Shown in pieces: positions 1 to 612 of a stretch of 4,084 bases of DNA (position 1 is the stretch's first letter; each line of letters starts with the position of its first letter). The notes under the pieces were generated by a model. The model did no database searches. It was not told where the DNA came from and saw nothing but the letters and a program-made list of their open reading frames with translations. A program made the position numbers and the translations under genes. Source of the DNA: a virus. Its lineage: Duplodnaviria > Heunggongvirae > Uroviricota > Caudoviricetes. Where the stretch lies: the IMG/VR virus record IMGVR_UViG_2671181136_000011; one strand, given 5' to 3'.

Positions 1-434
1 GCAAAACGCGCGACACTCTGGTTGATGGCATCAAACTGTTCACCACCACGCACACCGGCATTCACCAGGGCTGCCAGTGACTCACTCGCCTGGTTAAACG
101 TCAGCCCTGCGGCCTGTCCGGCTCTGGAGAGCGTCAGCATGCGATCGGCAGTCAGTCCGGACTGATTACCGGAAAGAACCAGGGTTTTATTAAACGCTGA
201 AAGCGTGGAATCCCCCTGGTACCAGGCGTACGCCAGCGCACCTGTCGCCACCGCCAGCGAGGTGACCCCGACCATCGGCAGGGTGATCGCACCGGCAAGT
301 CCCCTGAACATGGGGATCATCCCGCCGAAGGAGTCCTTCACCTGACCGCCCTGTTGCAGCAGGATCAGCCAGGGATTCTGACCACCGGCAAGCTGCGTGG
401 CGATATCCGTAAACTGTGCGGGCAGGGTTCGCAT
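1..434 (-). CDS. H: Tail tape-measure protein (lambda gpH-like), main body; runs off the window start, so the C-terminal bulk of the gene lies outside the window. Frame is open from 533 down to 1; first in-frame ATG is at 434..432.
   Basis: Minus-strand translation from 533 gives ...PEKPPQALAAQKAGISVGQYKAAMRTLPAQFTDIATQLAGGQNPWLILLQQGGQVKDSFGGMIPMFRGLAGAITLPMVGVTSLAVATGALAYAWYQGDSTLSAFNKTLVLSGNQSGLTADRMLTLSRAGQAAGLTFNQ..., which closely matches my recollection of the N-terminal region of lambda gpH. It has no stop down to position 1. Not in the ORF track because it leaves the window. Position after T matches lambda gene order. Confidence 0.75.
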   Translation of the reverse strand, partial: MRTLPAQFTDIATQLAGGQNPWLILLQQGGQVKDSFGGMIPMFRGLAGAITLPMVGVTSLAVATGALAYAWYQGDSTLSAFNKTLVLSGNQSGLTADRMLTLSRAGQAAGLTFNQASESLAALVNAGVRGGEQFDAINQSVARF

Positions 435-441
435 GGCCGCT

Positions 442-612
442 TTATACTGCCCGACGGAAATCCCGGCTTTTTGTGCAGCCAGCGCCTGAGGCGGTTTTTC
501 TGGCGTCAGTCTCCAGTCCGGAAAAATGACGCCTTACCCGGCTCATCTGCTCATCGAAACGGACCGCATCCAGACTCAGGTCAATAACAAGATCACCAAC
601 CGGCTGGGACAT
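442..612 (-). pseudogene. H: 5' fragment of tape-measure gene H: 56 codons (MSQPVGDLVIDLSLDAVRFDEQMSRVRRHFSGLETDARKTASGAGCTKSRDFRRAV) ending at TAA 444..442, in a different frame from the main H body
   Basis: ATG at 612..610 is preceded by a GGAGG Shine-Dalgarno (plus 621..625) with an 8-nt spacer. The first ~40 residues resemble the lambda gpH N-terminus as I recall it (MAEPVGDLVVDLSLDAARFDEQMARVRRHFSG...). The frame then diverges and stops, while the lambda-like sequence continues in the +1 frame from about 488. Confidence 0.6.

Follow-up and report, generated by a model that had tools for sequence, protein, structure and literature searches.

The DNA analysed here, referred to as the window, is a stretch of 4084 bases which, read on the minus strand, comprises, from a lambda-like E. 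coli prophage, the module for head-tail joining and for the tail; the prophage is known here from this window alone, both it and H continuing past the window edge. The genes follow the lambda order: the end of E, FI (3566..3940), FII (3220..3573), Z (2630..3205), U (2238..2633), V (1478..2230), G/G-T (tail chaperone G at 1033..1464), T (tail chaperone, ORF at 593..1006) and the start of H, all on the minus strand, with the end of T at 593 overlapping the start of H at 612. The -1 slippery site G GGA AAG (1057..1051, minus strand), the classic site of the lambda programmed frameshift, is intact, and a -1 slip there gives a G-T fusion product of 279 aa. FI, FII, Z, U, V, G and T are all intact, 7 of the 7 deduced proteins being identical to those of the E. 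coli ML35 prophage.

A strong terminator-like hairpin (3955..3984, minus strand), formed by GCGGGGGCGAAATGCCCCCGT followed by GTCTTTTTTC and containing 9 pairs, 7 of them G-C, was observed between the E stop codon (3994..3992) and the FI start (3940), i.e. inside the late operon and directly after E. Terminator-like sites across the window number 3 versus 3.5 expected from shuffled sequence, i.e. there is no excess, and no sigma-70-like promoter was detected in the window. The mechanically called FI ORF starts at GTG 3988, encodes 140 aa and passes through the hairpin, its extra stretch occupying 3941..3988 (minus strand); in the annotation of the relatives, FI starts at ATG 3940, which has a good Shine-Dalgarno (SD) sequence (-9.4 kcal/mol), and encodes 124 aa.

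The start of H is well marked, with an SD sequence, GGAGG (625..621, minus strand), located 8 nt upstream of ATG 612..610 and having a predicted pairing with the 16S 3'-end of -10.8 kcal/mol, the joint strongest in the window. The frame opened by this ATG (612..442, minus strand) comprises 56 codons and ends at TAA 444..442. Residues 1–41 of its product are native H and residues 42–56 (SGAGCTKSRDFRRAV) are out-of-frame. No Pfam match was found for this truncated 5' ORF, and the 56-aa product has no record as a called gene by exact-sequence lookup in the gene-position collection. The rest of H is borne by the +1 frame (533..1, minus strand), which is open from 533 and exits the window at position 1. 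This frame reads ...PEKPPQALAAQKAGISVGQYKAAMRTLPAQFTD..., with the match to H beginning at CAG 488..486 and continuing as QALAAQKAGISVGQYKAAMRTLPAQFTDIATQLAGGQNPWLILLQQGG...; past the junction it contains Pfam TMP_2 (PF06791) with E = 7.4e-51 (profile positions 17–162) and is identical to ML35 H from residue 51 on. The N-terminal segment and the body of H are not joined in one continuous frame, since the frame of ATG 612 stops at TAA 444, and about 94% of H remains in the other frame without a good start site. The H frame has no canonical start before ATG 434 (434..432, minus strand), which corresponds to Met69 of intact H and lies 7 nt past the TAA. It is the only ATG, GTG or TTG in that frame between 533 and 432, with just ATT and CTG codons upstream, and its SD pairing (-3.1 kcal/mol) is the weakest among all starts of the window, compared with -10.8 kcal/mol at the true H start.

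Alignment with the intact H genes of the E. coli O55:H7 CB9615 and ML35 prophages revealed a single 26-nt gap, with flanks 100% identical on either side (identity with CB9615 covering the first 700 bases and that with ML35 the entire window), and placed the deletion junction between 490 and 489 (minus strand). The missing segment, GGTGTTGTTGAGCAGAACCTGAGTCG, equals 8 codons plus 2 nt and affects codons 42–50 of the 859-codon H, which encode GVVEQNLSR, the counterpart of residues 42–50 (AVVEQSLSR) of lambda gpH. An earlier note on this DNA had described the GGAGG with its 8-nt spacer, the ATG at 612, the 56 codons and the TAA at 444..442, a gpH-like beginning, a resumption in the +1 frame from about 488 and the absence of roughly nine residues around AVVEQSLSR with a net frame change, and had taken this to suggest a small deletion in the early part of H; these points are borne out by the alignments and, as to the size of the loss, are now exact. 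Among complete E. coli genomes, the best 700-base matches each extend over 726 bases with 96.4% identity (= 700/726). The gap is outside any homopolymer and no other indel is present in the window. With a lesion this discrete, set against hundreds of intact homologues, a chance effect need not be considered.

The same note had suggested that the deletion possibly arose between short direct repeats, a proposal that the junction does not support. The junction is blunt, sliding 0 nt to the left and 0 nt to the right, i.e. without microhomology, and the sole imperfect repeat nearby, CAGAAAAACC / CAGAACC (CAGAA..CC), predicts another junction, so that a slipped-strand origin was rejected. A hairpin origin was also rejected, as the predicted DNA folding of the intact region looks unremarkable (-15.2 kcal/mol over 106 nt). 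Since the junction cannot slide, the repeat mispredicts its position and the deleted 26-mer has no second occurrence in the window, the sequence would fit some blunt illegitimate joining.

Over its full length the window is most similar to the E. coli ML35 prophage (99.3%). Compared base by base over the 4084 bases, the two differ only in the 26-nt gap and in one SNP at window position 1721 (minus strand), where V codon 170 is TCC here and TCT in ML35, both encoding serine. The prophages of ML35 (WP_000082490.1) and CB9615 (WP_000082491.1) retain the 26 nt that the window lacks, and in each of them H is a single CDS of 859 aa, annotated in the relatives as one 'phage tail tape measure protein'. 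H-like DNA is common: 3,715 of the 5,426 complete E. coli genomes have it, the median among these being 2 places and the maximum 8. A 34-mer centred on the junction gave no megablast hit in the 5,426 complete E. coli genomes or in 50,697 phage records, and the exact 26-mer across the junction was absent from the GTDB species representatives, IMG/VR and the JGI metagenomes. With a 76-nt query across the junction, the flanks lie 26 nt further apart, spanning 102 nt, in the best 15 of the 138 complete-genome records covering at least 80% of the query. The two-frame arrangement is thus not conserved, with 0 junction copies in five collections and a single frame in every close relative inspected, and it therefore appears private to this sequence. 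As no homologue sharing it was found in any collection searched, the earlier note's reading of a disrupted gene stands unrefuted in this respect.

That the affected gene is a lambda-type H is indicated by several features. The intact ML35 H aligns end to end with lambda gpH (PDB 8iyk_H; 1–859 to 1–853, 1432 bits) and contains the domains TMP_2 (54–256) and Tape_meas_lam_C (633–707), and H in the window is placed immediately after the G / G-T chaperone pair and its -1 slippery site. By domain content, similarity of the undeleted allele and position, the gene would be a lambda-type H, the Tape_meas_lam_C domain and the C-terminal helix docking on gpI in the tail tip being situated beyond window position 1, but its frame is not continuous and, judged from its sequence, it is best described as a pseudogene.

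The N-terminal part of H is well conserved: none of the 11 diverged homologues aligned, the most distant at 56% identity, lacks residues 1–68, and D7, L8, F19 and E21 are invariant. Around the deletion (H residues ~42–50, window ~460..500), alleles differ naturally in linker length, by 11 residues. The longer form is seen in three diverged H alleles (P0060, P0066 and P0072), which have 11 extra residues exactly at this site (e.g. RKQADAAEQSL), always in frame, while the neighbouring N-terminal and QALAAQKAG blocks are conserved in the same alignment (A3). Because linker length is naturally variable, in frame, at the point of deletion, a loss of 27 nt there might well be tolerated, and the damage would then lie in the change of frame.

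We consider it likely that a real, recent and private frameshift deletion has made H a pseudogene, and that the prophage is unable to build tails unaided. Published structures show the C terminus of gpH in the tail tip and the gpH oligomer surrounded by polymerised gpV (PMC10721106). A single blunt deletion of 26 bp would have taken out codons 42–50 of H and shifted the frame, and the frame itself shows that ribosomes starting at ATG 612 would make a peptide of 56 residues and stop at TAA 444. Full-length tape measure would then not be made, and polymerisation of the tail tube on the H/G/GT scaffold could not begin. On induction, DNA-filled heads without tails would be expected, unless a co-resident lambdoid prophage provided H in trans. 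Expression of M, the following gene, may drop as well, given that its start and the H stop share 4 nt (ATGA) in the intact relative; antitermination of the late operon in lambda should limit transcriptional polarity. The event looks very recent, because the rest of the 4 kb is intact and essentially identical to the intact relative.

The main alternative is that H is intact in the strain and that the 26-nt gap arose during sequencing, assembly, consensus polishing or later handling, for instance by the mis-joining of reads from several near-identical lambdoid prophages. It would account for a lesion that occurs in this one sequence only, with a junction unique across every collection searched, flanks 100% identical to intact alleles and a blunt join without microhomology. 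Spontaneous deletions by replication slippage in E. coli seldom lack microhomology, and its absence here counts against a real deletion. Assembly is made harder by the multi-copy nature of H-like places in the positive E. coli genomes, and broken H fragments are common in public assemblies, the public protein sets holding many truncated ones, at least some of which come from error-prone data. However, the usual sequencing errors are 1–2-nt indels in homopolymers, whereas the lesion here is 26 nt long and not in a homopolymer, and the other 4058 bases contain no indel and a single synonymous difference from ML35, which argues for a sequence of high quality and supports a real deletion. A contrasting case is the assembly GCA_026134585.1 (L004), which is error-ridden and has most of its tail genes fragmented. 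An artefact therefore seems rather unlikely, although it deserves to be kept in mind.

A different lesion was observed in the same part of H in two other sources. An extra T in the H T-run is common to L004 (positions 2770-3040) and to L005, the metagenome contig ERZ504639 NODE_13889 with 1.5x coverage (positions 20-300), at a site equivalent to window ~517..523, and gene callers then start H at Met69. As to that allele in complete genomes, the 12 matches listed of 150 span one base fewer, and none of those listed is perfect over the 48-nt query. Although two independent sources share it, the extra T is probably a sequencing error of the usual homopolymer kind.

It is also conceivable that ribosomes reinitiate at ATG 434 after terminating at TAA 444, yielding H residues 69–859 (791 aa), and that this product still assembles into tails about 10 nm shorter. 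The TAA and the ATG are only 7 nt apart, no canonical start precedes ATG 434 in the H frame, and the linker at the deletion shows a natural length difference of 11 residues among alleles. Furthermore, PMC1796659 cites Katsura & Hendrix 1984 and Katsura 1987 for short in-frame changes in lambda H that alter the length of the tail while the phage remains viable. However, the restart codon has the weakest SD pairing in the window (-3.1 versus -10.8 kcal/mol), and its product would lack the 68 residues retained by all 11 of the diverged homologues, including the four invariant positions. The truncation also cuts into the TMP_2 domain, the match to which starts at position 17 of the 208 in the profile. 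In the lactococcal phage TP901-1, whose tape measure protein is one that has been dissected systematically, each N-terminal deletion tested, including that of residues 2–31, abolished infectivity (PMC5099701). No natural homologues with a well-supported start at Met69 were found, those called from Met69 being located in frameshifted, error-prone contigs. The argument that the N-terminus is needed is drawn from conservation in the homologues and from the analogy with TP901-1, and no report of experiments addressing directly whether residues 1–68 of lambda gpH are essential was found. Taken together, these data make a working product restarted in this way very unlikely, although a low level of restart at ATG 434 may occur. 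That the restart product, alone or with the free 56-residue peptide, makes functional and slightly shorter tails is a proposition to which we give hardly any credence; if true, it would mean that the conserved N-terminal segment of the lambda-type tape measure is dispensable or able to act in trans.

Two database proteins starting at Met69 (P0118 and P0120) were considered as examples of a restart-type H and rejected. Their loci are the two just described, one in the assembly with most tail genes fragmented and one in the metagenome contig of 1.5x coverage; the T-run with the extra T lies some 30 nt upstream, and these loci most likely reflect sequencing errors, not a functional two-frame H.

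Finally, a programmed or leaky +1 ribosomal frameshift restoring near-full-length H within the 89-nt zone that is open in both frames (533..445) is extremely improbable: a T-run (TTT T, e.g. in CAT TTT TCC) would let tRNA-Phe re-pair in the +1 frame, but inspection of the codons of this zone revealed only this generic TTT-T site, the A site after TTT holding neither a rare or slow codon nor a stop, and an SD-like stimulator being absent upstream, and no signal could have been selected because the close relatives are all single-frame and no homologue found has such an arrangement. In addition, transcriptional slippage would need runs longer than T5 and A5 to be appreciable.

The earlier note had offered three outcomes for the broken frame. 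Among these, a defective prophage is the best supported, an indel of sequencing or assembly is possible but atypical, and a shortened H started from ATG 434 is the least likely. If H has indeed been inactivated by the deletion, its annotation here should read frameshifted pseudogene, and by itself the prophage should count as defective in tails, which bears on predicting whether induction leads to infectious particles or the element can spread its cargo. The lesion would also give a ready-made natural H-null whose lambda-like tail module is otherwise pristine, and the junction could serve as a strain-specific marker because it was found nowhere else. Beyond annotation the significance is small, and no long-standing question is opened.

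Compared with lambda, the window has the same gene order after G/G-T/T and the same G GGA AAG slippery site, and the undeleted ML35 allele has the same two Pfam domains, TMP_2 and Tape_meas_lam_C, as lambda gpH (PDB 8IYK/8IYL/8K35, chain H). Unlike lambda gpH, H in the window is split by the 26-nt frameshifting deletion at codons 42–50, and no single ORF encodes the protein. Lesions of this kind are familiar, since frameshifts and deletions in the morphogenesis genes of lambdoid prophages, as well as rescue in trans by sister prophages, are well documented (PMC2669165). Among the defective lambdoid prophages of E. coli, the Sp prophages of O157 Sakai being an example, morphogenesis genes are damaged by frameshifts, deletions or insertions of IS elements (Asadulghani et al. 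2009, PMC2669165). Such prophages are potentially mobilisable and can be packaged and transferred, with sister prophages supplying compatible virion proteins (PMC2669165). The probable inactivation of H is thus a case of ordinary prophage decay and is nothing new in kind, the lesion itself being simply unrecorded elsewhere. In contrast to the defective lambdoid prophages, the window contains one visible lesion in a module that is otherwise pristine, and the prophage would represent the earliest stage of decay, not a multiply damaged remnant.
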